Below are positions 2,458 to 31,826 of a DNA stretch of 32,000 bases, piece by piece. The notes under the pieces are model-generated. The model saw only the letters and a program-made list of their open reading frames with translations, had not been told where the DNA came from and did no database searches. A program made the translations under genes and the position numbers. The stretch is from assembly GCF_000379685.1 (NCBI RefSeq), contig NZ_KB903290.1, positions 211,790 through 243,789 of the forward strand. Reading direction: 5' to 3'. This stretch comes from Catelliglobosispora koreensis DSM 44566 (lineage in GTDB: Bacteria > Actinomycetota > Actinomycetes > Mycobacteriales > Micromonosporaceae). How positions within the stretch are numbered: the stretch's first letter is position 1; the number at the start of each line of letters is the position of its first letter.

Positions 2458-3588
2458 ATGGTTTTCAAGAAACTGCTCGCCGGGCTCGGTTTCGGCGGCA
2501 TCGAAGCAGACACCATCCTGCCCCCACAACCGGCCGCCTCCGGCGGCCAGCTGACTGGGCAGGTGAACCTGCGTGCTAAATCTGATACCGACATCACCGC
2601 CATTACGCTCATCCTCGTAGCCCAGGCGCCGATGGGTGAGCTTGAGCTGAGCCGGTTCCAGGTCGCCGGAATGGTCCGCATCCCCTCTGGGGCAACACAA
2701 GCGGTGCCGTTCAGTGTGCCACTGTCGGCATACACCCCGTTCACTGTCCTATTCGGGCAGAATCTTCCCGGCATGCACCTCGGTGTGCGTACCGAACTCG
2801 CGGTCGCCTCAGGTAAAGCCAAAGGCGACTTCGACCCGGTCCGCGTCGAAGCCGCCGGCGTGCACGAGCAGATCATGGACACCCTCGGGCTGATCGGCTG
2901 CAAGTTCGTGCGCAGCGACATCCGCCCCGGCGCCCAGGTGGGCCTCAATGTTCCTGCGGTGCAGGCGATCACGTTCTTCGCGCCGAGCCCCGACGGGCAG
3001 CAGCCCGGCCCGCACATCCCACTGATTACCTTCACCCTATCCGGCAACAACGAGGGCCTTACCGTCCTATCCGAACTGACCGGCCGCCCCGGTGTGCCGG
3101 ACCGCCACGAACTATCTGCAGCCGACGTCACGCGACTGACGAACACCGATGGTGGCTGGAGCGGCGAAGTCGACCGGTGGCTGATCAACACTCTTGAAAA
3201 GCTCGGCCAGGCATCAGCTGGTGCCGGTGCGGGCGGGTTCATGCAGCCGCACGCACAAAGCCACCAGCCAGGCTATGGACAGCAGCCGTACGGTTACGGC
3301 CAGAAGGGGTATGCCTACGGCGGGCACGCCAAACACGGTTCCTACAAATACTCTGGCTATCACGGTAAACCGTCGATGGCCGGTGCCTTGGCGATGGGTG
3401 TCGGCGGTGCCGCGCTCGGATTCCTGGGCGGGATGATGCTAGGCGACATGATCGGCGACGCCTTCGGCGGCGACATGGCAGGCGAGGCAATGGATGCCGC
3501 CGGTGTCGAAGACCCAGGCCTGGCCGATGCCGGCGGCGATATGGGCGGGTTCGACGATTTCGGCGGCGGAGACTTCGGCGAATTCTGA
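2458..3588 (+). CDS. SpoOM-family (sporulation-control-like) protein with long G/Y-rich, glycine-zipper and acidic C-terminal extension
   Basis: The N-terminus MVFKKLLAGLGFGGIEADTIL...GQVNL is the typical SpoOM start. An RBS (AAGGAAGG) precedes the ATG. From about aa 251 the C-terminus is low complexity. Confidence 0.8.
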   Translation: MVFKKLLAGLGFGGIEADTILPPQPAASGGQLTGQVNLRAKSDTDITAITLILVAQAPMGELELSRFQVAGMVRIPSGATQAVPFSVPLSAYTPFTVLFGQNLPGMHLGVRTELAVASGKAKGDFDPVRVEAAGVHEQIMDTLGLIGCKFVRSDIRPGAQVGLNVPAVQAITFFAPSPDGQQPGPHIPLITFTLSGNNEGLTVLSELTGRPGVPDRHELSAADVTRLTNTDGGWSGEVDRWLINTLEKLGQASAGAGAGGFMQPHAQSHQPGYGQQPYGYGQKGYAYGGHAKHGSYKYSGYHGKPSMAGALAMGVGGAALGFLGGMMLGDMIGDAFGGDMAGEAMDAAGVEDPGLADAGGDMGGFDDFGGGDFGEF

Positions 3589-3752
3589 GCCGCCGAAACT
3601 GCCACCCAAACGGCCGGTGGCGGCCCGCTCTGCACTGGTCCGGGCGGGGCCACCGGTCCCACACTGGGTGCCGCGTCTTATGTGGAGTGACCCTGGCGCG
3701 CGGGCACCGCGATGGAAACCACACATTGCGCACTGCGCTGAGGGACTGCATC

Positions 3753-3766
3753 AGGTCTTTGGTCCC
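3753..3766. promoter_or_regulatory. Candidate distal DosR/DevR-like box (AGGTCTTTGGTCCC)
   Basis: Matches GGGACTWWAGTCCC at 11/14 positions. An extra GGGAC half-site lies at 3742-3746. The box sits about 250 nt upstream of hyhB. Confidence 0.3.
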
Positions 3767-3938
3767 GCTTGGTGGGGCCGTGGACTCTATTGGCAAGCCT
3801 TGCGTAGCGTGCACGCTGAATGCAGTCACCCGTCGGCGAAGTGACAAGAGAACTCGCACAGACTCGACATCCTCCTTCTGCCGGCGGGTCGCCATGGCGC
3901 GGGTGGAGCACCGAGGTCAAGGTGTTGTAGCCAGGAGG

Positions 3939-3958
3939 TACGGGCCTTTAGTCCCCGG
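3939..3958. promoter_or_regulatory. DosR/DevR-like box upstream of the hydrogenase operon (TACGGGCCTTTAGTCCCCGG)
   Basis: The core GGGCCTTTAGTCCC matches GGGACTWWAGTCCC at 13/14, and the full site matches the 20-mer TTSGGGACTWWAGTCCCSAA at 16/20. It lies 56-75 nt upstream of the ATG at 4014. Confidence 0.6.
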
Positions 3959-4013
3959 GCCTGTGGGCCCTGCGAATCTAGCCGTCGAGGCAAAGGGATA
4001 GTGCACTTAAGGC

Positions 4014-5126
4014 ATGGTGCTAACCCGCAAACGCGTCCTCCCGACCGCCATGCTGGACTCGCTATCTCCTCTCATAGCGGCCTTGCGTGCCGACGGCTAC
4101 AGCGTGATCGGGCCAACCCTGCGCGATGGGGCCATTGTGCTTGCCGAGCTAACCTCAGCCAGCGATCTGCCCCACGGCTGGGGCGTCGAACTTGACGCGG
4201 GCAGTTACCGGGTCCGCCGCCGTGATGACGATGCCGCTTTCGGGCACTCATCCGGGGCGCAGTCCTGGAAAACCTACCTGCATCCAGCGAAAGTTCCCTT
4301 TTGGACCGCACAGAAAACCAGTGATGGCTTCACCGTTGACGTACCTCCGCCGGACGGCATCCGGTACGCCTTCGTCGGAGTGCGGCCATGCGACTTGCGT
4401 GCCATAGCAATTCAGGGGCGTGTGCTTGGCAGTAGCTATGCGGCACGTCTCGAGTCCGCGTTCATCGTTGCTGTTGACTGCACCGAGCCGGGTGAGGCCT
4501 GCTTCTGCGTCACGGCCGGCGGCGGACCGGCCTGTGGCCCAGGTGCCGATATTCAGCTCACGGAGACAGTTGGTCCACGCTACCTAGCCAGCGCGCAAAC
4601 CACGATAGGACAAGCCGTCCTCGATACCTTGCCGCAGCAACCTGCTACACCAGCCGAACGAGAGCAGGGCGCGACGGCTGTGGCGCAAGCCGCCGAGCGC
4701 ATGCAGCGCCACCTGCCGTCGATTGACTTGCGAGACCTCCTGTCTGGTAGCAGGAATGCCGCCCGATGGGATGAGGTGGCGCAGCGCTGCCTGGCCTGTG
4801 GCAACTGCACCATGGTTTGCCCAACATGTTTTTGCACGTCGGTGCGCGACACCACCGATCTCGGCGGGGATATCGCACAGCGCTGGCAAACCTGGGACTC
4901 CTGTTTCGATCTGGACTTCTCCTATCTGCATGGCGGGCCGGTGCGCACGAGCACCAGCAGCCGTTACCGCCAGTGGCTGAGCCACAAGTTAGGCACCTGG
5001 CATGACCAGTTCGGGGAATCAGGGTGTGTCGGTTGTGGACGGTGCATCGTGTGGTGCCCAGCCGGAATCGACCTCACCGAGGAAGTCAGTGCTTTGGCTC
5101 AAGAAAGGCAGACAGACCATGAATAG
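4014..5126 (+). CDS. hyhB: Group 3b-type hydrogenase beta subunit (AsrA/sulfhydrogenase-beta-like 4Fe-4S protein)
   Basis: 370 aa. Two ferredoxin-type Cys clusters are present (CLACGNCTMVCPTCFC and CVGCGRCIVWCPAGID). It is the first gene of a gamma/delta/alpha hydrogenase gene set. Confidence 0.85.
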   Translation: MVLTRKRVLPTAMLDSLSPLIAALRADGYSVIGPTLRDGAIVLAELTSASDLPHGWGVELDAGSYRVRRRDDDAAFGHSSGAQSWKTYLHPAKVPFWTAQKTSDGFTVDVPPPDGIRYAFVGVRPCDLRAIAIQGRVLGSSYAARLESAFIVAVDCTEPGEACFCVTAGGGPACGPGADIQLTETVGPRYLASAQTTIGQAVLDTLPQQPATPAEREQGATAVAQAAERMQRHLPSIDLRDLLSGSRNAARWDEVAQRCLACGNCTMVCPTCFCTSVRDTTDLGGDIAQRWQTWDSCFDLDFSYLHGGPVRTSTSSRYRQWLSHKLGTWHDQFGESGCVGCGRCIVWCPAGIDLTEEVSALAQERQTDHE

Positions 5127-5583
5127 CGTTCGTGACACGTTAGGTGAATTTTCGTTCCTTGACGAGGTACCCGACACCTGGCTGGATCGCCTGAGCAGTA
5201 TCGGGCACAAGGTAACTTACCCGACTGGGCAGCGGATCTTCCATGAAGGTGAGCGCGCAGAACACTTCTGGCTCATCACTAGCGGAGCGGTTGGTTTGGA
5301 CCTGCATGTGCCGGGCAGGGGCGACATCCTCATCGAAACGTTGCGCGAGGGCGACGTACTCGGCTGGTCGTGGATGTTCCCTCCCCGCCGCTGGCACTTC
5401 GGCGCAGTGGCAGCGCGGACAGTGCACGCGATCCAATTCAATGGCGAAGAGGTCATGCGGACGTGCCGCGAGAATCCGGCCCTCGGGATGGACCTGATGC
5501 AGCGGTTCGTGGCGCTCATCCTAGATCGTCTGCAGGCCACGCGAATGAGACTCATCGATCTTTATGGGTATCCGCCATCATGA
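5119..5583 (+). CDS. Stand-alone cyclic-nucleotide-binding-domain (CAP effector-domain fold) protein, no HTH
   Basis: The track ORF 5002-5583 is trimmed to the ATG at 5119, which is preceded by AAGAAAGG. The sequence FSFLDEVPDTWLDRL...YPTGQRIFHEGERAEHFWLITSGAVGLDL...REGDVLGWSW is a cNMP-binding beta-roll. It overlaps hyhB by 8 nt, and its TGA overlaps the hyhG ATG. Confidence 0.8.
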   Translation: MNSVRDTLGEFSFLDEVPDTWLDRLSSIGHKVTYPTGQRIFHEGERAEHFWLITSGAVGLDLHVPGRGDILIETLREGDVLGWSWMFPPRRWHFGAVAARTVHAIQFNGEEVMRTCRENPALGMDLMQRFVALILDRLQATRMRLIDLYGYPPS

Positions 5584-6386
5584 TGCCTTCGCTATTTCGT
5601 GTTGTTCACCGGCGCGTGGAAACGCACGACACAGTCACGCTGGCCTTGGCACCTGCTAGTGAGCCGCTGACACCGCCAGCGCCAGGCCAGTTCCACATGC
5701 TCTACGCCTTTGGGATCGGCGAGATCCCCGTGTCCGTCAGTGCCACCGAGGATGCAGGGATTCAGCTGCACACGATAAGGGCGGTTGGTGCGGTGTCCCG
5801 GGCACTGTGCCAGGCCATGCCAGGAACGATGCTCGGCGTGCGTGGCCCATTTGGCAAAGGCTGGCGTGTCCCGGCACAAGGTGGCAAAAACCTGCTGATT
5901 GTTGCCGGCGGGATTGGGCTGGCGCCGTTGCGGCCTGTGATCCGCGAGGCCATACGACGGCGTGAACAGTACGGAAACGTTGCTGTTGCCATCGGCGCTC
6001 GCAGCCCAGGCGAACAGCTCTACACAGCGGAGTACCGGGAGTGGCGAGACGCCGGCCTGAAGGTGCTGACCACCGTGGACCAGGCGCCTGGGGGATGGGG
6101 CGGCCACGTGGGGCTCGTTACGCAGCTGCTGCCAGGTCTGGTGACGAGCCCAGCGGCGACCGTCGCCATGCTTTGCGGCCCCGAGGCCATGATGCGGGTG
6201 ACCGCCCGGGCATTGGCCGATCAGGGTATGGCAGCGCCATCGATTCAGGTTTCGCTCGAACGCAACATGCAGTGCGGCATAGGCGAATGCGGTCATTGCC
6301 AGCTTGGCCCGCTGTTGGTCTGCCGAAGTGGCCCGGTCACCGGCTACGAAGTGGCGGAGCCATTGTTCGCGGTGAAGGAGCTGTGA
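5580..6386 (+). CDS. hyhG: Group 3b-type hydrogenase gamma subunit (AsrB/PyrK-like FAD/NAD(P)-binding oxidoreductase with C-terminal 2Fe-2S)
   Basis: Trimmed to the ATG at 5580 ([21 protein letters not shown]). It has an FNR-like fold, an [13 protein letters not shown] nucleotide-binding motif and the C-terminal cluster motif [14 protein letters not shown]. Confidence 0.85.
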
Positions 6387-7075
6387 TGAAACCGAAACTC
6401 GCCGTGTGGAAGTTCGCCTCGTGCGACGGCTGCCAGCTGTCCCTTTTGGACTGTGAAGACGAGCTACTGGAGATCGCCGCACACGTGCAGATCGCGCACT
6501 TCCTTGAGGCCTCCAGCGCCAGCGTCTGCGGCCCATATGACATCTCGCTGGTGGAAGGATCCGTCACGACACCATTGGATGTGGAGCGCATCCGGCAGGT
6601 GCGGGCAGACTCCAAGCAGCTGATCACGATCGGTGCCTGCGCGACGGCCGGTGGAATTCAGGCTCTGCGCAACTTCGCCGACGTTGACGAGTTCCGGTCA
6701 ATCGTTTACGCGCGACCCGAATTCATCGACACCCTTGCCGAGTCCACGCCGATCGCAGCGGTCGTACCGGTGGACTATGAATTGCGCGGCTGTCCCATCG
6801 ACCGCGGTCAGCTACTCGAGACACTGTCGGCGCTGCTGAATGGGCGACGGCCGCGTGGCCCGCTGCACAGCGTGTGCTTCGAATGCAAAACACGTGGGAC
6901 AACCTGCGTTCTCGTGAAGGGAACGCCCTGCCTCGGACCCGCCACGCAGGCCGGGTGTGGAGCGCTGTGCCCAGCCTATGGCCGCGGTTGCTACGGCTGC
7001 TTCGGCCCGGCCACGGGTGCACCGGCCCACGCCAAGAAGGTGTTCAACCTCTTCAACTCGGGAGCGCCGTCATGA
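6386..7075 (+). CDS. hyhS: [NiFe]-hydrogenase small (delta) subunit, NuoB-like
   Basis: Trimmed to the ATG at 6386 ([28 protein letters not shown]). [10 protein letters not shown] and a C-terminal Cys-rich FeS region are present. Start and stop codons overlap the neighbours on both sides. Confidence 0.9.
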
Positions 7076-8373
7076 CGCACCGTCTCGATCGTTCACTGCA
7101 GGTCAGCGCGCTGTCGCGAGTGGAGGGTGAGGGCGCGATGCGTCTTGTCACCGCAGGCGGCAGGGTGGAGTCGGTAGCGCTGGAGATATACGAGCCGCCG
7201 AGGTTTTTCGAGGCGCTGCTTCGCGGGCGCACCATGGGCGAGGTCACCGACATTACAGCGCGCATCTGCGGCATCTGCCCGGTCGCCTATCAGATGTCGG
7301 CGTGTCACGCGATGGAAGACGCTTGTGGGACCAATATTCCCGTTCCGATACAGGACCTGCGGCGGCTGCTCTATTGCGGCGAGTGGATTTCCAGCCACGC
7401 CCTGCATATCTACCTGCTGCACGCCCCAGATTTCCTTGGCTACGACAGCGTTGTGGAGCTGGCCCAGGCACACCGGCCCCTTGTGGAACGTGGCTTGCGC
7501 CTGAAGAAGGCCGGCAATGCGATCCTGCAAACCGTTGGCGGAAGGGCGATTCACCCGGTCAACGTACGGCTCGGCGGGTTTTACCGTTCGCCGAGCCGGG
7601 CTGAACTACAGGAGCTGGCGGTCACCTTGCGGTCGGCCCTCGATGACGCGCTGGCAACGGTGCGATGGGTGGCGGGATTTGACTTTCCGGACTTCGCCCA
7701 TGAGCACGAGTACCTCGCGCTAGTGAGTCCCGGCTGCTATGCCATAGAATCCGGCGTTCCCACCACCGACCGCGGGCTCAGCTTCCCGGTACGCGATTTC
7801 GAATCGCATGTCATCGAGGAACAGGTACCGCATTCCACGGCCCTGCACGCCCGCCTGGCTGGCCGTGGCCGTTACCTGACAGGCCCGCTGGCACGCTATT
7901 CCCTTAGCCAGCAATGGCTCTCACCGCTGGCCAGGATGGCCGCGGCGCAGGCCGGGCTGGGGGAGACGTGCCGTAACCCCTTCCGCAGCATCGTGGTGCG
8001 TGCCGTTGAGACCGTCTACGCGGTGGAAGAGGCACTGCGACTGATCGACGGCTACGTGCCACCGCAACCGGCGCATGTGGACCTCATTCCCTTATCCGGC
8101 AAGGGTTTTGGTGCGACTGAGGCACCCCGGGGCACGCTATTTCACCGGTACGAGATCTCCGCGTCCGGGGACATTGTGTCTGCCCGGATCACCCCGCCGA
8201 CGTCGCAGAACCAGGCCGCGATCGAGGACGATCTGCGCCTATTCGCCGGGCCTAGGCTGGAACTGGATGACCACGAGCTGGCGCACGCCTGCGAGTCGGC
8301 GATCCGCTGCTATGACCCTTGCATCTCCTGCGCCACACACTTCCTCGAGTTGACTGTGGAGCGGAGACTGTGA
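7072..8373 (+). CDS. hyhL: [NiFe]-hydrogenase large (alpha) subunit, group 3b-like
   Basis: Trimmed to the ATG at 7072. The N-terminal Ni-binding motif [10 protein letters not shown] and the C-terminal DPCISCATH are both present. The size (433 aa) fits cytosolic group 3 enzymes. Confidence 0.92.
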
Positions 8374-8816
8374 TGGGCAAGATTGTCGTTATCGGTGTGG
8401 GGAACCCTTACCGGCGTGACGACGGCGTAGGCCCGGCGGTAATCGACTTGCTGCGGGATCGTCGGCTCGTGGGCGTGCGCCTCGCCACGTCCCTCGGCGA
8501 CACCGCGGAACTCATCGAATTGTGGTCTAGCGCGAGCTTGGCCATCGTCGTCGACGCCATGCGGGCTGTCGCGCCTCGCCCTGGGCGAGTCCACCGGACG
8601 GTCAGCTCACATGGCCTGCCGATGGGTGAGGCGATAGAGCTCGCGCGAGCGCTCGGCCGCATGCCCGATCGCCTTGAGGTGTATGGCATCGAGGTACAGG
8701 AAACCGGTCACGGGCACGGGCTAAGCCCTGACGTGGCGTCAAGTGCGATCGCGGTCGCGCGCCGCATCGCTGTGGAGGTGAAACGCGCATGTGCCTCGCC
8801 TACGCCGCAAAAGTAG
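8373..8816 (+). CDS. Hydrogenase maturation endopeptidase (HyaD/HycI family)
   Basis: [23 protein letters not shown] carries the GNxxxxDDGxG motif. The ATG overlaps the hyhL TGA. Confidence 0.85.
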   Translation: MGKIVVIGVGNPYRRDDGVGPAVIDLLRDRRLVGVRLATSLGDTAELIELWSSASLAIVVDAMRAVAPRPGRVHRTVSSHGLPMGEAIELARALGRMPDRLEVYGIEVQETGHGHGLSPDVASSAIAVARRIAVEVKRACASPTPQK

Positions 8817-8989
8817 TGTCCGTTTCGGACACCGTTGCCATGGTCTTCACCGGAGAAAACCAGCAGCGGGTCACTTTGCTTGCCCTTGAAGGAGATCCCC
8901 CGGTGCCCGGGGACTGGGTGCTGGTCCTTTCCGGGCTAGCGCTACGAAAGCTCACCGAGGAGGAGCGCCATGAGTACCTCACACCGTAG
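8789..8989 (+). CDS. hypC: HypC/HupF-family hydrogenase assembly chaperone
   Basis: 66 aa. It begins with MCL (the essential N-terminal Cys) and contains the PGDWVLV...L..EE pattern typical of the HypC OB-fold. Confidence 0.8.
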   Translation: MCLAYAAKVVSVSDTVAMVFTGENQQRVTLLALEGDPPVPGDWVLVLSGLALRKLTEEERHEYLTP

Positions 8990-9857
8990 CGGGCTAGCGT
9001 TAGCTTTTGCCGCAGCCGCCATAAGCGGTGTCGCTGTTTACCTCAACGGTTTCGCGGTCAAAGTCGCCCGCGACGCCACGATTTACACCACAGCCAAGAA
9101 CCTCATCGCAGGACTAGTCATCGTGGGCTTTGTCATGGCGACACGGTCGGCCAAACCTGTCCGCGGCGGTAAACAGCTTGCCACTCTTGGCCTGGTGGCC
9201 CTCATCGGTGGCAGCATCCCGTTCGTGCTGTTCTTCGAGGGGCTCGCACGAGCATCGTCGGTGCATGCCGCGTTCATTCACAAGACGCTGTTCCTCTGGG
9301 TCGCCGTCCTTGCCATACCCCTCCTTGGCGAGCGGCTTCGCCCGGTACACGGATTGGCGGCCGCGATGCTTGTCGGCGGCCTCTTCGTCCTCGAAGGCGG
9401 CCTGACCGGCTTCAGTATCGCCACCGGTGAGGTTCTCATTTTCGCGGCGACGCTGTTGTGGTCGGCTGAAACAGTTGTGGTGAAACGGCTTTTGCACGAC
9501 GTCGCGCCCGCGACAGTGGCGCTGGCACGAATGGCTGTCGGCTCCCTGGCGCTGGTGGCCTGGGTCATTGTTACCGGCCGCTGGCACGCTCTGGTTGCTC
9601 TCCCGGTGCAGGGGTGGCTGTGGGCGGCGGCCACCGGTGTGATCCTCAGCTGTTACGTGCTGACCTGGTTCACCGCTCTGGAACGAGCCCAGGCGCTTGA
9701 TGTGACTGCGATCCTCGTCGCAGGCGCCGTGCTCACGGCTGTCCTGCGGGGTGGATACGTGACCGTCACTGCCGCTACCGGGCTGACGCTGATTGCCGTA
9801 GGCGCCGTCATCACTGCCTTCGCAGCCGTACAATCGCGGCAGCCGGAGCTGACATGA
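8970..9857 (+). CDS. EamA/DMT-superfamily transporter (about 10 TM)
   Basis: 295 aa and highly hydrophobic, with two internally repeated 5-TM halves typical of EamA. It overlaps hypC by 20 nt and shares an ATGA with the next gene. Confidence 0.75.
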   Translation: MSTSHRSGLALAFAAAAISGVAVYLNGFAVKVARDATIYTTAKNLIAGLVIVGFVMATRSAKPVRGGKQLATLGLVALIGGSIPFVLFFEGLARASSVHAAFIHKTLFLWVAVLAIPLLGERLRPVHGLAAAMLVGGLFVLEGGLTGFSIATGEVLIFAATLLWSAETVVVKRLLHDVAPATVALARMAVGSLALVAWVIVTGRWHALVALPVQGWLWAAATGVILSCYVLTWFTALERAQALDVTAILVAGAVLTAVLRGGYVTVTAATGLTLIAVGAVITAFAAVQSRQPELT

Positions 9858-10669
9858 CCGGCGGCGCAGTACCGCACGCGCAACACCGCGGTGGCGGCCG
9901 AGCCGCTGAAGCGGACATAGCCAACGGCGCACTCAGATTCGCGCGCTACGCGTACCCGCCGAATGCGCTGGGCTATTGCGGTCCAGGCGATTCGGCCGCG
10001 CTTCTAGGCTATGCGGAAGCCGGTGCCGTCGATGCTGGGCTCGCCGATCTGGCACAGCGGTTCGCCGGGGCGTGGCCCTACCTGTCGCTCATCGGCGCTG
10101 CTAACCATGACCTCTACCCGCTCGATGACGCGGTCGTGGAAGCGTACTGGCTCGGCAATCCACTGCTTGAGCGGATCGCGCCGCCCCTGCTTGCCGCGCA
10201 TCTGGCGGACCGTTTCGCTGACCGGGCGGGGCCAGCGTGGGACAACCTCTCCGTCCTGGCACACCGTGGAGGCCGGGCGCATCACAACTTCCACGTGTTC
10301 GCCGTCTACCCCTGGGTGGGGATGCTCCGGGCAGGTTTCACCGAGGATCCGTTGCGGGTGCTCAATTCCTGCCGCGTCCGGTGGGGCACCGTGCTTGGTG
10401 TACATCCCGGCTTCGCCGAAGTGTGGGCACAACCGTTGACCTGGAACGGGAACCTTTCGCTCGGCCCTGGCCAGGTTGACGTGGCGACTCTGTCCGCAGC
10501 CCAGACGACTTCTATCAAGAGCGGCGACATGGTGTCTCTGCACTGGGACTGGGTGTGCGAGACACTGACACAGCAGCAGGCCCAACGTTTGCAGAGGTAC
10601 ACGGCCTCCCAGCTGCGGCTGGTTAACGAGGCTCTGGGCTGGCCAGCCACGGCAGCACTGCTGGGCTGA
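9854..10669 (+). CDS. Conserved hypothetical protein (actinobacterial DUF); C-terminal about 80 aa resembles a HypC-like fold
   Basis: 271-aa ORF, ATGA-coupled to eamA, with codon usage like its neighbours. The N-terminal motif is RFARYAYPPNALGYCGP. The C-terminal segment CRVRWGTVLGV...SGDMVSLHWDWVCETLTQQQAQRL parallels the HypC pattern C-x-x-x-P-G-x-V...GD-x-V-L-V-H...L..EEA. Confidence 0.65.
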   Translation: MTGGAVPHAQHRGGGRAAEADIANGALRFARYAYPPNALGYCGPGDSAALLGYAEAGAVDAGLADLAQRFAGAWPYLSLIGAANHDLYPLDDAVVEAYWLGNPLLERIAPPLLAAHLADRFADRAGPAWDNLSVLAHRGGRAHHNFHVFAVYPWVGMLRAGFTEDPLRVLNSCRVRWGTVLGVHPGFAEVWAQPLTWNGNLSLGPGQVDVATLSAAQTTSIKSGDMVSLHWDWVCETLTQQQAQRLQRYTASQLRLVNEALGWPATAALLG

Positions 10670-12329: not shown

Positions 12330-12370
12330 GACGAAGGGACCTTAGGCCCAGGCTGCCGAATAACTCTTGC

Positions 12371-12981: not shown

Positions 12982-13857
12982 GTGCCTGGCCGTCATGTTG
13001 TGGTAGGGCTGGATTTCTCGCCGTCCGGACAGGATGCCGTCGAGTACGCCGCACGGCTCGCAGCACGCTACCGTGCTCCGCTTACGCTCATCCATGCCCA
13101 TATCAACGCTCTGCCCGGTTACACGGGAATTGGAATGCCTGTTCCGTACATCCCCGGGCAAGAGTCGGTATTGGACTGGATCGACTCACAGTTAAAACAA
13201 ACCGTCGAGTCGGTGCGGGGCATTTATGATGGCGATATCGATGTCCGGCGAGTCATCGGCCGCCCCGCCGGTGTCCTGATTCGCGCATCGCGAGACGCTT
13301 TGGTCACGGTCGTCGGCGCCCGTGGGGCGGGAGGATTCTCCGGGCTGCTCCTCGGATCTGTGTCATCCCAAGTCGCCGCGCACGCTCACGGCCCGGTGAT
13401 CGTCGTGCGCCCGCCCGAGATGCGACAGGACTTCGCCGCTTCCGGGCCGGTGCTGGTGGGTTATGACGGATCCGCCGAGTCCGGTGCGGCACTGGAGTTC
13501 GCCGCCGCGGAGGCGTATTCGCGCCGGGCGTCGCTGAAGGTCGTCAACGTCTATTGGGCGCAACCGTGGCTGGATGACGATACTCGTCAGCAACGGCTGG
13601 CCGCCGCCGAAAACCTTGTGGAACAGGCGATCGCGACCTGCCGCGACGAGTATCTGGCGCTGGATCTGCAGCCCCTGACAGTGCTCGACCCCAGCCCTGA
13701 GCATGCCCTGATAGAAGCGTCAAAGGGTGCCGCTTTGACCGTGGTTGGCTGCCGCGGACGTGGGGGTTTGGCCGGGATGCTGCTGGGCTCGGTGTCATGG
13801 GCTCTGACCCACCATGCCCAGCACCCCGTCGCCGTCGTTCACCCGGCTGGGCGCTAA
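12982..13857 (+). CDS. Universal stress protein, tandem Usp domains
   Basis: 291 aa. Two Usp repeats each end in a G-x2-G-x9-G(S/T)-like ATP motif (VVGARGAGGFSGLLLGSVS and VVGCRGRGGLAGMLLGSVS). An RBS (GGAAGGA) precedes the GTG start. Confidence 0.9.
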   Translation: MPGRHVVVGLDFSPSGQDAVEYAARLAARYRAPLTLIHAHINALPGYTGIGMPVPYIPGQESVLDWIDSQLKQTVESVRGIYDGDIDVRRVIGRPAGVLIRASRDALVTVVGARGAGGFSGLLLGSVSSQVAAHAHGPVIVVRPPEMRQDFAASGPVLVGYDGSAESGAALEFAAAEAYSRRASLKVVNVYWAQPWLDDDTRQQRLAAAENLVEQAIATCRDEYLALDLQPLTVLDPSPEHALIEASKGAALTVVGCRGRGGLAGMLLGSVSWALTHHAQHPVAVVHPAGR

Positions 13858-17375: not shown

Positions 17376-18221
17376 CTAGGACGGTAGGTGTGCCCACGCT
17401 CCATGGGCGCCAGCTCGCAACCGGGCGATGACCACCGGGCATCTCGCATGGTGGACGAGCGCTTGGCCAGTCGAGCCAAGCAGCAGACCGGCAAAGCCGC
17501 CAAGCCCGCGTGAGCCGACTACTACCACGCTGGCGGCCTCAGTGCGAGGCACGAGGATGTGTGCCGGTGATCCCGGAACAGCCTGCTGCTCCGTTCGCAC
17601 ATCCGGGAAGGCTTCCTGCCACGGAAGGAGTTCCCGCGCCAGCAGTTCGGTCGCCTGATCATGTTCGGTTTCCGCGTCAGGCACAGGAATCAAGGCATCC
17701 GGGTAACCCATGAGCCCACTGGCGTAAACATGCAATGCGAGAACCGGGCGGCCGGTGAGGTTGGCTTCCAGGAAGGCGTACTCAAGAGCCCCTTGGCTGT
17801 GTGGCGAGGAATCGACACCAACAACAATCGGGCCGTCTTGCGCTGTGTTGCCGCGTACGACGGCGACTGGGCAGTGCGCGTGCATCGACACCTGTAAACT
17901 TGTCGAGCCAAGGAGAAGGTCGGGCAGCGCGCCGCGACCGCGGCGGCCCACGACGATGAGCGCCGCATGATCGGAAGCAGCGATAAGCGCCTGCGCTGCT
18001 GTGGTTTCGGCCAGTTCGGGCACGCAGCGCGCGTCCGCGAACCTCTCCTTCACGAAAGCGTCAGCCTGCCGCCACAGGCCGTGTGCTGTTTCAGCGGATC
18101 CCGCGTGGAGGGTAATCAACGGCACGCGGCGCACGGCAGCCGCGTGGGCAGCCCACATCAATGCCTGCCAAGACGATTCGGATCCGTCGATGCCTACAAC
18201 GATCTGCCGCGAGTCCATCAC
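17376..18221 (-). CDS. Universal stress protein, tandem Usp domains
   Basis: 281 aa, starting IVVGIDGSESS. ATP motifs are VVGRRGRGALPDLLLGSTS and VVGSRGLGGFAGLLLGSTG. Confidence 0.9.
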   Translation of the reverse strand: MMDSRQIVVGIDGSESSWQALMWAAHAAAVRRVPLITLHAGSAETAHGLWRQADAFVKERFADARCVPELAETTAAQALIAASDHAALIVVGRRGRGALPDLLLGSTSLQVSMHAHCPVAVVRGNTAQDGPIVVGVDSSPHSQGALEYAFLEANLTGRPVLALHVYASGLMGYPDALIPVPDAETEHDQATELLARELLPWQEAFPDVRTEQQAVPGSPAHILVPRTEAASVVVVGSRGLGGFAGLLLGSTGQALVHHARCPVVIARLRAGAHGAWAHLPS

Positions 18222-18344: not shown

Positions 18345-19475
18345 ATGGATATCACGCTAAGCATTATCAAGGCCGATACCGGCGGCTTCGTCGGCCACAC
18401 CGCCGTTCACCCGGAGATGATGGCAGCCGCGAGATCCGAGATCACAAAAGCCATCGCCGAAGGGCTATTGATCGATGGCAATGTTGCCGCGTGTGGAGAT
18501 GATATTTCGCTCATCATGACCCATCAGCGTGAGCCCGAGAACGCGGCTATTCATTCGTTTGCCTGGAACGTTTTCCGCGAAACGACAGTGATTGCCAAGC
18601 GCCTCGGGTTGTATGGCGCCGGGCAGGATCTGCTCTCCGACGCCTTCAGCGGCAACCTTCGTGGAATGGGCCCCGGCTATGCCGAGCTGTCGTTCACCGA
18701 GCGGCCTAGCGAGCCAGTGATCTGCTTCCTGGCCGATAAGACGGAGCCTGGTGCGTGGAACTTGCCTCTGTACAAGATGTTCGCCGATCCGTTCAACACC
18801 GCTGGGCTGGTCATCGATGCCAAGATGCACGCTGGTTTCCGGTTTGAGGTGTACGACCTTTATGAGGAGAAGCGCATCTGGTTCGACTGTCCCAAGGATC
18901 TCTACGAGATGCTGATGTTCATCGGTGCGCCTGCTCGTTACGTGATTCACCGGGTCGAGTCGCCAACACTGGGCGAACCGGCGGCGGCTACCTCGACGCA
19001 ACGCCTCTCACTGATCGCGGGCAAGTACGTAGGCAAGGACGATCCGGTGATGATCGTTCGCGCGCAATCCGGATTACCCGCGGTGGGTGAGGTGCTAGAG
19101 CCGTTTGCCTTCCCGCACACGGTGGCGGGCTGCATGCGTGGCTCCCACCACGCACCTCTTACACCGGTCAGCCTCGCCCAAGCTCATCCCAGCCGCTTCG
19201 ACGGGCCGCCGCGTGTCGTGGCGCTCGGATTCCAGCTGCATGAGGGAAAGCTGATCGGCCCTCGCGATCTATTTGACGATGTCGCGTTTGACGGTGCCCG
19301 TACCACCGCCGGAGAGGTCATGGACTATCTGCGCCGGCACGGCCCGTTTGAGCCACATCGGCTCGCACTCGAGGATCTGGAATACACGACGATGCATGAA
19401 CTGGAGCGCCGTCTAGCCGATCGCTGGGAATCGATGGGGGAGCCGGTGCGGGCACAGAAGGGAATCGCGTCATGA
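18345..19475 (+). CDS. fbp: Class V (archaeal-type) bifunctional fructose-1,6-bisphosphate aldolase/phosphatase
   Basis: The 376-aa protein is collinear with my recollection of the Sulfolobus/Thermoproteus enzymes. Shared blocks: SIIKADTGGFVGH, GAGQDLLSDAFSGNLRGMGPG, ADKTEPGAWNLPLYKMFADPFNT, IAGKYVGKDDPVMIVR, MRGSHHAPL, RFDGPPRV. Confidence 0.92.
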   Translation: MDITLSIIKADTGGFVGHTAVHPEMMAAARSEITKAIAEGLLIDGNVAACGDDISLIMTHQREPENAAIHSFAWNVFRETTVIAKRLGLYGAGQDLLSDAFSGNLRGMGPGYAELSFTERPSEPVICFLADKTEPGAWNLPLYKMFADPFNTAGLVIDAKMHAGFRFEVYDLYEEKRIWFDCPKDLYEMLMFIGAPARYVIHRVESPTLGEPAAATSTQRLSLIAGKYVGKDDPVMIVRAQSGLPAVGEVLEPFAFPHTVAGCMRGSHHAPLTPVSLAQAHPSRFDGPPRVVALGFQLHEGKLIGPRDLFDDVAFDGARTTAGEVMDYLRRHGPFEPHRLALEDLEYTTMHELERRLADRWESMGEPVRAQKGIAS

Positions 19476-20200: not shown

Positions 20201-20629
20201 CTAGTTATTTGGCGGTGCTGAATATACAGCGCCTGCGAACTCGGCAACCTCTGCCTGATAAAGATTTCTGGCGAGGTCTGCTTCGCTGATCATGCCAACA
20301 AGGCGATGGTCTTGCATCACGGGCAAGCGGCGGATGGCGTTGATTTCCATCAGGCGCAGCACCTCGCGTTCGTCAGCTTGCGCGTCGACCCACACCGGGG
20401 TTCCCTTGGCTAGCTGGCCCGCTGTTGTCTGCTTCGGGTCGCTTCCTTCCGCGATGCAATGCACCACGATATCGCGGTCAGTGATGATGCCGTGCAACCG
20501 GTCATCGGCGCCGCAGATGGGAAGCGCGCCGACATGCAGGTCACGCATCTTGCGGGCGGCCGCGTCTAAGGTCTCCGATTCCTTGATGCACTCGACGCCT
20601 TCATGCATCAGGTCCCTTGCTGTGGCCAT
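20201..20629 (-). CDS. CBS-pair domain protein (Hrp1/Rv2626c-like)
   Basis: Trimmed to the ATG at 20629, preceded by CCAGGAGGAAG. The 142-aa protein has two CBS motifs (ARDLMHEGVECI...GALPICG...GIITDRDIV and the second ...LPVMQDHRLVGMISEADLA). Confidence 0.88.
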   Translation of the reverse strand: MATARDLMHEGVECIKESETLDAAARKMRDLHVGALPICGADDRLHGIITDRDIVVHCIAEGSDPKQTTAGQLAKGTPVWVDAQADEREVLRLMEINAIRRLPVMQDHRLVGMISEADLARNLYQAEVAEFAGAVYSAPPNN

Positions 20630-20809
20630 GGTGACTTCCTCCTGGTCGTTGGCCCGCGGCGCCGCTGCCGGACATGCCGGCACGGTTTGCCTCGCGTGTA
20701 TCTGGCTCGTCTTCGAGCCTGGCAGGCACCTGCCGGCGCTCGCAGGCTAACCCGGAAATGCACGCGGATTGCCAGGCGTTTTCTGCCTGCCGCGAGTTGG
20801 GAGCCTGGC

Positions 20810-22138: not shown

Positions 22139-22158
22139 CAGAGGACCTTAGGCCCTTC
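22139..22158. promoter_or_regulatory. Candidate DosR/DevR-like box proximal to the hsp20 gene (CAGAGGACCTTAGGCCCTTC)
   Basis: The core AGGACCTTAGGCCC matches at 11/14. It lies 58-77 nt upstream of the ATG at 22216. Confidence 0.5.
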
Positions 22159-30931: not shown

Positions 30932-30951
30932 CTCGGGACTTAAGTCCTAGT
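30932..30951. promoter_or_regulatory. DosR/DevR-like box in the PRT-hydrolase/usp divergent region (CTCGGGACTTAAGTCCTAGT)
   Basis: The core GGGACTTAAGTCCT matches GGGACTWWAGTCCC at 13/14. It lies 54-73 nt upstream of the ATG at 31005 and 79-98 nt upstream of the minus-strand ATG at 30853. Confidence 0.7.
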
Positions 30952-31004
30952 TCATGGGCCCTTACCACCTGTGCCAGGCAGATCCGGGCCGTCACCGTGG
31001 AGGT

Positions 31005-31826
31005 ATGGGCAAGCATGTTCTCGCAGGCGTCTGTGATTCGGATGGATCTCGTGCCGCTGCGGCGTTCGCCGCGCGGCTTGCCCACGCCAATGGTGCGCCG
31101 TTGCAGTTGCTGCACGTCTATGAGGAACCGTTTCTCGGCTACGGCCCGCGTGTCTTAGCCGGGACCTACACCATTGCCGAACCTCAAGCACAAGCACAGG
31201 CGCTCGCTCTCATCGCGCAAGAAACCAGGCGTCTGGCTTTCACATTCCCTGGCCTGACCGTGATGGCACAGATACGAGAAGGCGATGCCGCGCGGGTACT
31301 GTCCGTGGAGTCGAGGAAGGCGGCTATCACCGTGCTGGGCCCGGCAGCGGCACGACAGGGACACGGCGCGAGCCCACATTCGATCCCGGCCACGGTAGCC
31401 GCGCACGGCCATCACGCGGTGGTGATCGTGAACCCTGGCGGGCAGGAACACGGCCCAGTGCTGGTCGGGGTCGACGGCACCCGTCCCGGGCAGGCCGCAG
31501 TCGGTTTCGCCGTGCGCCAGGCACTAGCACTGGACGTTCCGCTTGTCGCCATCAATGTCTATGCCGGCCCGGCGACCGAAGCCGAGGAACTGCTGCGTAT
31601 GTCGCTGCTGCCGTGGGAAACGGTGCACCCCCAGCTCAGAACCGTGTTGCGTCCCATTCATAGCGCCAGCCCCGAATACGCGATGGCCGACGAGTCACAA
31701 CACGCCAGCCTGACAGTCGTCGGCTCGCATGGCCACGCCGGCTATTTGGCTCTTCTGCTTGGCTCGGTAAGCCAGCATCTCGTGCGCGAAGGCACCAGCC
31801 CGGTCGCCATCGTGCATGTGCCATAA
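31005..31826 (+). CDS. Universal stress protein, tandem Usp domains
   Basis: MGKHVLAGVCDSDGS... with the C-terminal ATP motif VVGSHGHAGYLALLLGSVS. The ATG at 31005 is preferred over 30954 because the DosR-like box abuts 30954. The SD (GGAGG) is only 1 nt from the ATG, so the start is not certain. Confidence 0.82.
   Translation: MGKHVLAGVCDSDGSRAAAAFAARLAHANGAPLQLLHVYEEPFLGYGPRVLAGTYTIAEPQAQAQALALIAQETRRLAFTFPGLTVMAQIREGDAARVLSVESRKAAITVLGPAAARQGHGASPHSIPATVAAHGHHAVVIVNPGGQEHGPVLVGVDGTRPGQAAVGFAVRQALALDVPLVAINVYAGPATEAEELLRMSLLPWETVHPQLRTVLRPIHSASPEYAMADESQHASLTVVGSHGHAGYLALLLGSVSQHLVREGTSPVAIVHVP

Follow-up and report, generated by a model that had tools for sequence, protein, structure and literature searches.

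A Stand-Alone Protein with a Cyclic-Nucleotide-Binding Fold as a Candidate Accessory Component of Bacterial Group 3b [NiFe]-Hydrogenases

Introduction

Few hydrogenases are as widely distributed in environmental bacteria as the group 3b [NiFe]-hydrogenases, to which the disposal or recovery of reductant is ascribed when oxygen is limiting. The four-subunit archaeal enzyme serves as the model for them. The group 3b enzymes of Pyrococcus furiosus (sulfhydrogenase 1, SHI, HydBGDA; PDB entries 9nez and 9e15) and Thermococcus kodakarensis (5yxy) are encoded in the order beta-gamma-delta-alpha, followed by a protease gene. The same order is found in a stretch of 32,000 nucleotides from Catelliglobosispora koreensis DSM 44566 (contig NZ_KB903290.1, positions 211,790 to 243,789; the whole stretch is referred to as the window, and all window coordinates are counted from its first letter). 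There, a gene on the plus strand (5119-5583) for a stand-alone protein of 154 residues with the fold of a cyclic-nucleotide-binding (CNB) domain lies between hyhB and hyhG, the genes of the beta and gamma subunits. The present report deals with this CNB protein, with its relatives, and with its probable relation to the hydrogenase.

The fermentative, hypoxia-induced group 3b hydrogenase Hyd3/Hyh of the actinobacterium Mycobacterium smegmatis (MSMEG_3931-3927) carries consecutive locus tags for the beta, gamma, delta and alpha subunits and the protease (PMC2799521). A small gene with a cyclic nucleoside monophosphate (cNMP) domain, Francci3_4499, lies between the diaphorase genes of Frankia synton-4 (Francci3_4500-4495) and was named a 'small transcriptional regulator' (PMC11879354). 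WP_013415449.1, a 'cNMP-binding domain-containing protein', is encoded between the diaphorase genes of the group 3b cluster of Rhodococcus equi 103S (PMC13332983). The Frankia and R. equi reports mention the gene in passing; they neither survey it nor analyse its motif, and they give no evidence of fusions and no proposal for its function. A literature search gave passing mentions only and no paper in which the CNB protein is treated as a part of the enzyme, its family is surveyed or its cassette is analysed. The presence of a CNB gene in such operons was already known; its cross-phylum dominance, its signature, its fusions and its free paralogues in dormancy-type islands appear to be undescribed in the literature searched.

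On the evidence collated below, the CNB protein is read as an accessory component of the diaphorase module (HyhB/HyhG), probably with a regulatory role. Its former cNMP site would have become a Trp-lined pocket, either for a ligand other than a cNMP or filled by the protein itself. A probability of roughly 0.5 is assigned to this reading.

Results and Discussion

Conservation of the gene between hyhB and hyhG

Metagenome contigs were scanned with a protein alignment of HyhG, which made the choice of loci independent of the CNB gene. The scan gave 80 loci (45-57% identity), 74 of which had enough upstream sequence to be informative. A gene of the CNB family was found between hyhB and hyhG in 64 of the 74 (86%), and a KSB1 genome that had been chosen via its unfused HyhB also contained a five-gene operon. 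The CNB gene is the majority state in the sampled bacterial clade, which with mostly five genes differs from the four-subunit archaeal enzymes. A neighbourhood survey had been proposed in a preliminary description of the window, in which absence or lack of linkage in related loci was to count against a part in the enzyme; the gene was present in these 64 loci. Nor can it be called an orphan, as it was in the same description. In a pattern scan of one genome per species with the family patterns GWSW[LM]FPP and [YR]RWHFGA.., relatives with the motif GWSW..PPyRW were found in at least 590 species genomes, and the family is large and conserved.

The best 80 loci from this second scan were analysed further; they hold 83 CNB copies when the window copy is counted. 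Thirty copies were located exactly between hyhB and hyhG, two directly upstream of hyhL (the large subunit gene) in split operons with divergent hyhB-G-S, two at contig ends or in partial operons, and three were second copies or remnants near hyh genes. All ten non-actinobacterial loci found via the CNB protein were operon-embedded: a Burkholderiales metagenome-assembled genome (MAG), two Binatia, a Planctomycetota, two Verrucomicrobiae, a Dormibacteria, a Trueperaceae, a Calothrix and a MAG labelled Enterobacteriaceae. The loci from Solirubrobacterales, Gaiellales and Nocardia were embedded as well. Over both surveys, the five-gene order was seen in Actinomycetota, Binatia, Planctomycetota, Verrucomicrobiota, Dormibacteria, Deinococcota, the Burkholderiales MAG, a cyanobacterium (Calothrix, as a triad) and KSB1.

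In the two split operons (L027 and L053, from Pseudosporangium ferrugineum and Nucisporomicrobium flavum, approximately 3000-9200 of the respective contigs), hyhB-hyhG-hyhS is read from one strand and CNB-hyhL-protease divergently; the CNB gene stays with the hydrogenase and has moved alongside the large subunit gene. The Calothrix MAG (contig L069, 5502-8402) carries hyhB-CNB-hyhG followed by an unrelated LRR-Roc-COR-CHAT gene, and neither hyhS nor hyhL was found within 6 kb. This triad points to the diaphorase module as the partner of the CNB protein; the diaphorase and CNB proteins of Calothrix may serve another partner, or the hydrogenase genes may be located elsewhere.

For 46 complete loci, the median identity to the window proteins was 39.6% for CNB, 49.8% for HyhB, 50.6% for HyhG, 57.7% for HyhL and 71.6% for HyhS. 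The CNB protein, which has a strongly conserved signature, is under purifying selection across phyla and evolves faster than the catalytic parts. Faster evolution is usual for accessory or regulatory components.

The preliminary description had placed the open reading frame for 154 aa inside a group 3b operon with overlaps on both sides, and the sequence bears this out: the ATG at 5119 overlaps the end of hyhB by 8 nt (TAG, 5124-5126), and the TGA at 5581-5583 overlaps the ATG of hyhG at 5580 by 4 nt (ATGA). The stop of hyhB overlapped the CNB start in 52 of 86 loci, typically by 4 or 14 nt, and the CNB stop was usually located 5-60 nt before hyhG, with an overlap in only seven. The double overlap of the window is an exception among these loci.

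Fusions to both neighbours

A profile search was performed over 1.84 billion proteins, and the 150 best representatives were considered, nearly all of which are 130-240 aa long. The search turned up proteins of 542 aa (Fer4_22 plus cNMP) and 468 aa (cNMP plus NAD_binding_1), which correspond to fusions of the CNB domain to HyhB and to HyhG, respectively. The HyhB-CNB fusion occurs in at least 12 clusters (49-76% identity, constant length of about 540 aa) from ENA, JGI and Logan sources, and one example was confirmed within a hyh operon: on contig L083 (6001-8184), the 542-aa fusion is followed by a free 133-aa CNB gene, hyhG, hyhS, hyhL, hycI and hypF. Two CNB domains per operon would fit a CRP-like dimer, and the arrangement suggests an obligate CNB pair. 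The CNB-HyhG fusion forms an 11-member cluster from at least 10 contigs, and 10 of its members are exactly 468 aa long. As 'Rosetta stone' evidence, fusions to both neighbours argue for HyhB, CNB and HyhG being parts of one complex, and they would thereby place the CNB domain near the C terminus of HyhB and the N terminus of HyhG. A 720-aa candidate for a triple fusion (P0282) was set aside as unreliable: only Fer4_22 and cNMP were detected in it, and its locus holds fragmented hyhL and hyp genes.

Ten longer or multi-domain relatives, drawn from the 150 best representatives, were scanned and no helix-turn-helix (HTH) domain was found in them; likewise, no HTH-bearing protein with the GWSW signature was present among the 150. 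In other proteins of the same CNB subfamily (P0252, P0211, P0121-P0134), the domain is fused to tandem universal stress protein (USP) domains or to CBS-CBS-BON, or occurs as two, three or five tandem repeats in proteins of up to 840 aa. The USP and CBS-BON fusions and the tandem repeats show that the domain also serves as a general sensor-type module.

Fold, cassette and C-helix

The window protein matches Pfam cNMP_binding (PF00027) with 50.6 bits against a cut-off of 27.5 (E = 1.9e-13, residues 32-119), and the Pfam scan gave no second domain and no HTH in its 154 residues. A model was computed with AlphaFold2 (AF2) from an alignment of 21 sequences (predicted local distance difference test, pLDDT, 90.6; predicted template modelling score, pTM, 0.83). 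It consists of an eight-stranded beta-roll and a subsequent helix of 30 residues (120-149 by DSSP), and the protein terminates five residues past this C-helix. When the model was compared with the PDB by Foldseek, the N-terminal domains of GlxR, Mycobacterium tuberculosis CRP and Escherichia coli CRP were retrieved (E of about 1e-13, 20-28% identity), with TM scores on the query of 0.75-0.81 to CRP-family domains and a probability of 1.00 to the CNB domains of CRP, GlxR and PKG. Pfam, AF2 and Foldseek alike agree with the earlier statement that the protein consists only of a CNB beta-roll and a C-helix and lacks an output domain.

The protein is 100% identical to WP_020524723.1 of C. koreensis, which is annotated as a 'Crp/Fnr family transcriptional regulator'. 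By fold match, the sensor domain and the helix of the CRP/FNR family are present; the database name misses the defining feature of that family, which is the C-terminal HTH. E. coli CRP, Corynebacterium glutamicum GlxR and M. tuberculosis CRP have the beta-roll and C-helix fold in common with the window protein, which differs from CRP/FNR regulators in having no HTH, in the replacement of the Glu and Arg of the cassette, and in being half the size.

The most conserved region of the family is a degenerate phosphate-binding cassette (5362-5412, plus strand; family signature), which in the window protein reads G82-W-S-W-M-F-P-P-R-R-W-H-F-G-A-V-A98. Residues G82, W83, S84, W85, P89 and W92 were invariant in 21 relatives, and G82, S84, W85 and P89 were at least 95% conserved in 87 operon-embedded copies. 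HMMER aligned the protein to the GlxR sequence GELSIFDPGPRTSSAV without a gap; W83 stands opposite the ribose-binding Glu and W92 opposite the phosphate-binding Arg, and R91 is paired with the Pro that precedes the phosphate-binding Arg of GlxR. With hhalign, E72 of E. coli CRP is likewise matched by W83, and R82-S83 fall in a gap. The Glu (to the ribose 2'-OH) and the Arg-Ser/Thr (to the cyclic phosphate) of cAMP and cGMP receptors were missing in every member of the CNB family examined. To judge from these alignments, a cassette that departs in this way from the canonical one is unlikely to bind cAMP or cGMP. In this respect the preliminary description, in which the cassette was called atypical and cAMP or cGMP was doubted, can be followed; its residue assignments cannot, because the Arg that it took to be retained (R91) is not the canonical one, the place of which is occupied by W92, and because the position of the Glu, said to be changed to Asp, is occupied by W83, with D79 preceding the Gly.

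The C-terminal helix (5476-5565, plus strand; residues 120-149) carries the conserved motif RLQATRxRLLDLY and is the counterpart of the dimerisation C-helix of CRP. Residues R137, L138, R142 and R144 were invariant in the 21 relatives, and the protein would dimerise via this helix by analogy with the CRP family.

Other modes of sensing were considered. Heme binding of the CooA type via His93 was dropped because the 87 embedded copies do not conserve this residue, and sensing by an Fe-S cluster is argued against by the lack of a conserved Cys in the 21 relatives and in the 87 embedded copies. NCBIfam holds no model for the window CNB protein. Its best match there, far below threshold, is the CNB insertion domain of family 2B encapsulin shell proteins, a further instance of a CNB domain inside a non-signalling protein.

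The best full-length structural match (TM score on the target of 0.91) is Gmet_1532 of Geobacter metallireducens (3MDP), which consists of a CNB domain alone (about 140 aa). Glu and Arg are missing from its cassette too, and it has the S..P-Y part of the cassette in common with the window protein. It was rejected as a solved orthologue on account of 27% identity, the absence of the Trp residues of GWSW and RW, and a non-hydrogenase gene context. Gmet_1532 (contig L166, 6001-6426) stands at the end of a cluster for electron transfer flavoprotein (ETF), Fe-S oxidoreductase, thiolase and short-chain dehydrogenase/reductase (SDR), and is another redox-linked CNB protein without an HTH.

Proposed role and competing explanations

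For the CNB protein to act as an accessory component of the diaphorase module, a CRP-like sensor domain (beta-roll plus dimerisation helix) would have lost its DNA-binding domain and the residues that contact the cNMP, the pocket region being lined instead by invariant Trp, Ser and Pro. A dimer held together by the C-helix may be positioned near the C terminus of HyhB and the N terminus of HyhG, where it would either bind a non-cNMP ligand or work by way of a pocket filled with its own Trp residues. Under hypoxia, when the operon is presumably expressed, it might in this way modulate the electron-input module in its activity, oligomeric state or stability. The CNB component would be dispensable for core catalysis.

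Several observations weigh against a dedicated subunit. In 10 of the 74 informative loci (about 14%), hyhB directly adjoins hyhG; these loci are found at no fewer than five separate places in the HyhG tree order, a scatter which implies repeated gene loss. Hyd3 of M. smegmatis belongs to this minority type, as its consecutive locus tags leave no CNB gene between beta and gamma, and the archaeal enzymes of P. furiosus and T. kodakarensis have four subunits and no CNB protein at this place. The gene is not required for a working enzyme. Association with the enzyme is not exclusive either: 46 of the 83 copies had no hyh gene within 7 kb. At the thresholds used, no specificity-determining residues were found that separate embedded from free copies; the free copies have the same conserved residues as the embedded ones, and a neighbouring hydrogenase is therefore no precondition for the family to function. 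The free paralogues, together with the repeated gene loss, are the main evidence against a dedicated subunit. The AF2 model of a natural HyhB-CNB fusion (P0273; pTM 0.62) has a low-confidence linker at residues 356-384 and no confident docking of its parts. Stoichiometric co-production had been deduced in the preliminary description from the overlaps on both sides, a deduction that could not be upheld: all junctions of the window operon overlap, hyhL/protease included, so that a gene which does not encode a subunit is coupled in the same manner, the coupling is not peculiar to the CNB gene, and it cannot alone show co-production in fixed ratio. The rarity of the CNB/hyhG overlap in other loci (seven of 86) is in line with this.

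The neighbourhoods of the free copies were read from called genes with Pfam labels; neighbour clusters from gene calling by GC content at third codon positions (GC3) were set aside as noisy, the largest of them being an artefact of antisense reading frames. Genes for USP, CBS-BON, Rv2632c-like proteins, Acg-type nitroreductase, pyruvate formate-lyase and its activase, WS/DGAT, phosphoketolase, and a GAF-kinase with a LuxR-type regulator (DosS/R-like) recur next to free copies, which by this gene content occupy islands of the hypoxia/dormancy type. Within the 83-copy sample, free copies were restricted to Micromonosporaceae, Streptomycetaceae, Streptosporangiales and a few unclassified actinomycetes. 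A neighbour-joining tree showed them interleaved with embedded copies of the same families, a pattern that suggests an ancestral embedded state and an origin of the free copies by duplication or operon decay. Two loci have the appearance of operon remnants: in one (L025, 7031-7956), the CNB gene is followed by a hydrogenase maturation protease gene with no structural genes, and the other (L059, 3828-5567) has the order CNB-hyhG-protease. Operon decay of this kind may be a source of free CNB copies.

The 46 free copies in dormancy-type islands, the USP and CBS-BON fusions, the proteins with 2-5 tandem repeats of the domain, and the DevR-type boxes upstream of hyhB and of a USP gene in the window would also be expected of a free-standing hypoxia or dormancy signalling protein of a DosR-type regulon that is merely co-transcribed with the hydrogenase genes and acts in trans, outside the enzyme complex. 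Such a role is judged unlikely, given that beyond a few actinomycete families every copy found was embedded between hyhB and hyhG, that fusions to both neighbours are hard to square with a passenger, and that the phylogeny suggests the embedded state as ancestral. Doubtful to a similar extent is a factor for structure or assembly that acts without a ligand, a 'self-liganded' CNB-homology domain whose former nucleotide pocket would be filled by the Trp-rich cassette and which would only scaffold or dimerise HyhBG(SL) protomers or chaperone the assembly of the Fe-S/flavin module. The bulky invariant Trp at both canonical ligand contacts and the long conserved C-helix would suit such a factor, as would the fused and free copies in one operon, which suggest an obligate domain pair, and the permanent tethering that is tolerated in the fusions; the repeated loss without a compensating domain in HyhB or HyhG and the fact that four-subunit enzymes work speak against it, and the free paralogues and the USP or CBS-BON fusions look regulatory.

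A truncated CRP/FNR regulator, serving as an anti-activator through heterodimers with a full-length CRP/FNR protein, would explain why the closest folds are the N-terminal domains of CRP and GlxR with their dimerisation helix (20-28% identity), and would be in keeping with the regulator label of the Frankia paper (PMC11879354). With no HTH here or in any scanned relative, no HTH-bearing GWSW protein among the best 150 representatives, and a place between structural genes and fusions to redox subunits that are atypical for regulators, this explanation is highly improbable. Hardly credible is a genuine cAMP/cGMP receptor or nucleotide 'sponge' by which the hydrogenase would be tied to cyclic-nucleotide signalling: Actinobacteria are rich in cAMP signalling, and the Pfam cNMP_binding match is above threshold, but the ribose-binding Glu and the phosphate-binding Arg-Ser/Thr are absent in every member examined.

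If the CNB protein is an accessory component of the diaphorase module, a wider proposal can be made, which is possible though we would not count on it. Most bacterial group 3b hydrogenases would then be five-component enzymes in which a dimeric, HTH-less, CRP-like fifth part senses a metabolite other than a cyclic nucleotide (a redox cofactor, for instance, or a signal tied to hypoxia) and allosterically switches the flow from NAD(P)H to H2 at the HyhB/HyhG interface, the module having been duplicated in some actinomycetes for other dormancy functions. Should a fifth, sensor-like component be the rule in a large bacterial clade, annotations as 'Crp/Fnr transcriptional regulator' would be misleading, structural and biochemical models of the bacterial group 3b enzyme would be incomplete, and a widespread fermentative, H2-recycling enzyme would have a direct layer of small-molecule control. 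A handle on NAD(P)H-linked H2 switching would then be offered by a small soluble protein, the three pocket Trp residues of which are suited to ligand screens by fluorescence or differential scanning fluorimetry (DSF). Through the free paralogues in dormancy islands, the DosR-type response of actinomycetes to hypoxia is linked to this question.

Operon and regulatory context in the window

All genes of the hydrogenase operon are located on the plus strand. The product of hyhB (4014-5126) is the 370-aa beta subunit of the diaphorase module, a 4Fe-4S dicluster protein (Pfam Fer4_22, 111 bits), the top matches of which were NCBIfam sulfhyd_HydB and the beta subunit of sulfhydrogenase 1 (PDB 9nez_B, E = 1e-25). 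The CNB start at 5119 is favoured over an upstream ATG at 5002, as the 154-aa database entry and the homologues begin at the same Met; the frame has a GC3 of 0.70 and a codon-position GC similar to that of the neighbouring genes. The gamma subunit is encoded by hyhG (5580-6386; FAD/NAD(P)-binding, 2Fe-2S; Pfam NAD_binding_1 plus DHODB_Fe-S_bind), with the related models AsrB and PRK08345 as top NCBIfam matches and sulfhyd_HydG also matched. The delta (small) subunit gene hyhS (6383-7075; Pfam Oxidored_q6, NCBIfam sulfhyd_ShyD/HydD) begins at GTG 6383 or ATG 6386, and the hyhG stop is overlapped either way.

The alpha (large) [NiFe] subunit is encoded by hyhL (7072-8373; Pfam NiFeSe_Hases, NCBIfam ShyA/HydA), the translation of which carries the metal-site motifs RICGIC and DPCISCATH. 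Its assignment to group 3b follows its best PDB matches, the alpha subunit of P. furiosus sulfhydrogenase 1 (9nez_D, E = 1e-63) and the T. kodakarensis enzyme (5yxy_A, about 1e-63), as against weaker E values for Mvh of group 3c (6e-47), Frh of group 3a (4e-37) and HoxH of group 3d (1e-35). Sulfhydrogenase HydB/G/D/A or ShyA-D models were among the strongest NCBIfam matches of the four subunits, all below the equivalog cut-offs, and a model of this type was the top match for HyhB, HyhS and HyhL, not for HyhG. By similarity, the surrounding operon is that of a group 3b [NiFe]-hydrogenase, and NAD(P)H-linked H2 activity is predicted. A gene for a hydrogenase maturation endopeptidase follows (8373-8816; NCBIfam TIGR00072, 85 bits against a cut-off of 47).

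A DevR/DosR-type palindromic box, GGGCCTTTAGTCCC (3942-3955), is located 59 bp upstream of the hyhB ATG and is a perfect match to GGGMCTWWAGKCCC; a degenerate second box (3957-3970) also lies upstream of hyhB. Related boxes were found at 12336-12349, 22142-22155 and 30935-30948, the last just upstream of a USP gene. When up to two mismatches to GGGMCTWWAGKCCC were allowed, five boxes were counted in the window, where 0.94 would be expected; in 100 shuffles, the count always stayed below five. Genes with such boxes upstream are hyhB, an acetyl-CoA-synthetase-like gene and a gene for a tandem-domain USP. Hypoxia control of the hyh operon via such a box is plausible from the sequence, and the link to hypoxia made in the preliminary description gains from it; the box would also fit the hypoxia induction of Hyd3. 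A scan of the operon for sigma-70 promoters and terminators gave nothing above chance.

Tandem-domain USP genes are present at 12982-13857 (plus), 17376-18221 (minus) and 30954-31826 (plus), and a CBS-pair protein is encoded at 20201-20683 (minus). Its gene content and boxes give the window the look of a section of a dormancy/hypoxia regulon island. The USP and CBS-pair classes of the window also surround free CNB paralogues in other actinomycetes. The hydrogenase operon is immediately followed by a translationally coupled pair, an EamA transporter gene (8970-9857) and a DUF6390 gene (9854-10669, plus; 273 bits). A class V (archaeal-type) fructose-1,6-bisphosphatase is encoded beside the stress genes (18345-19475, plus; FBPase_3, 573 bits).

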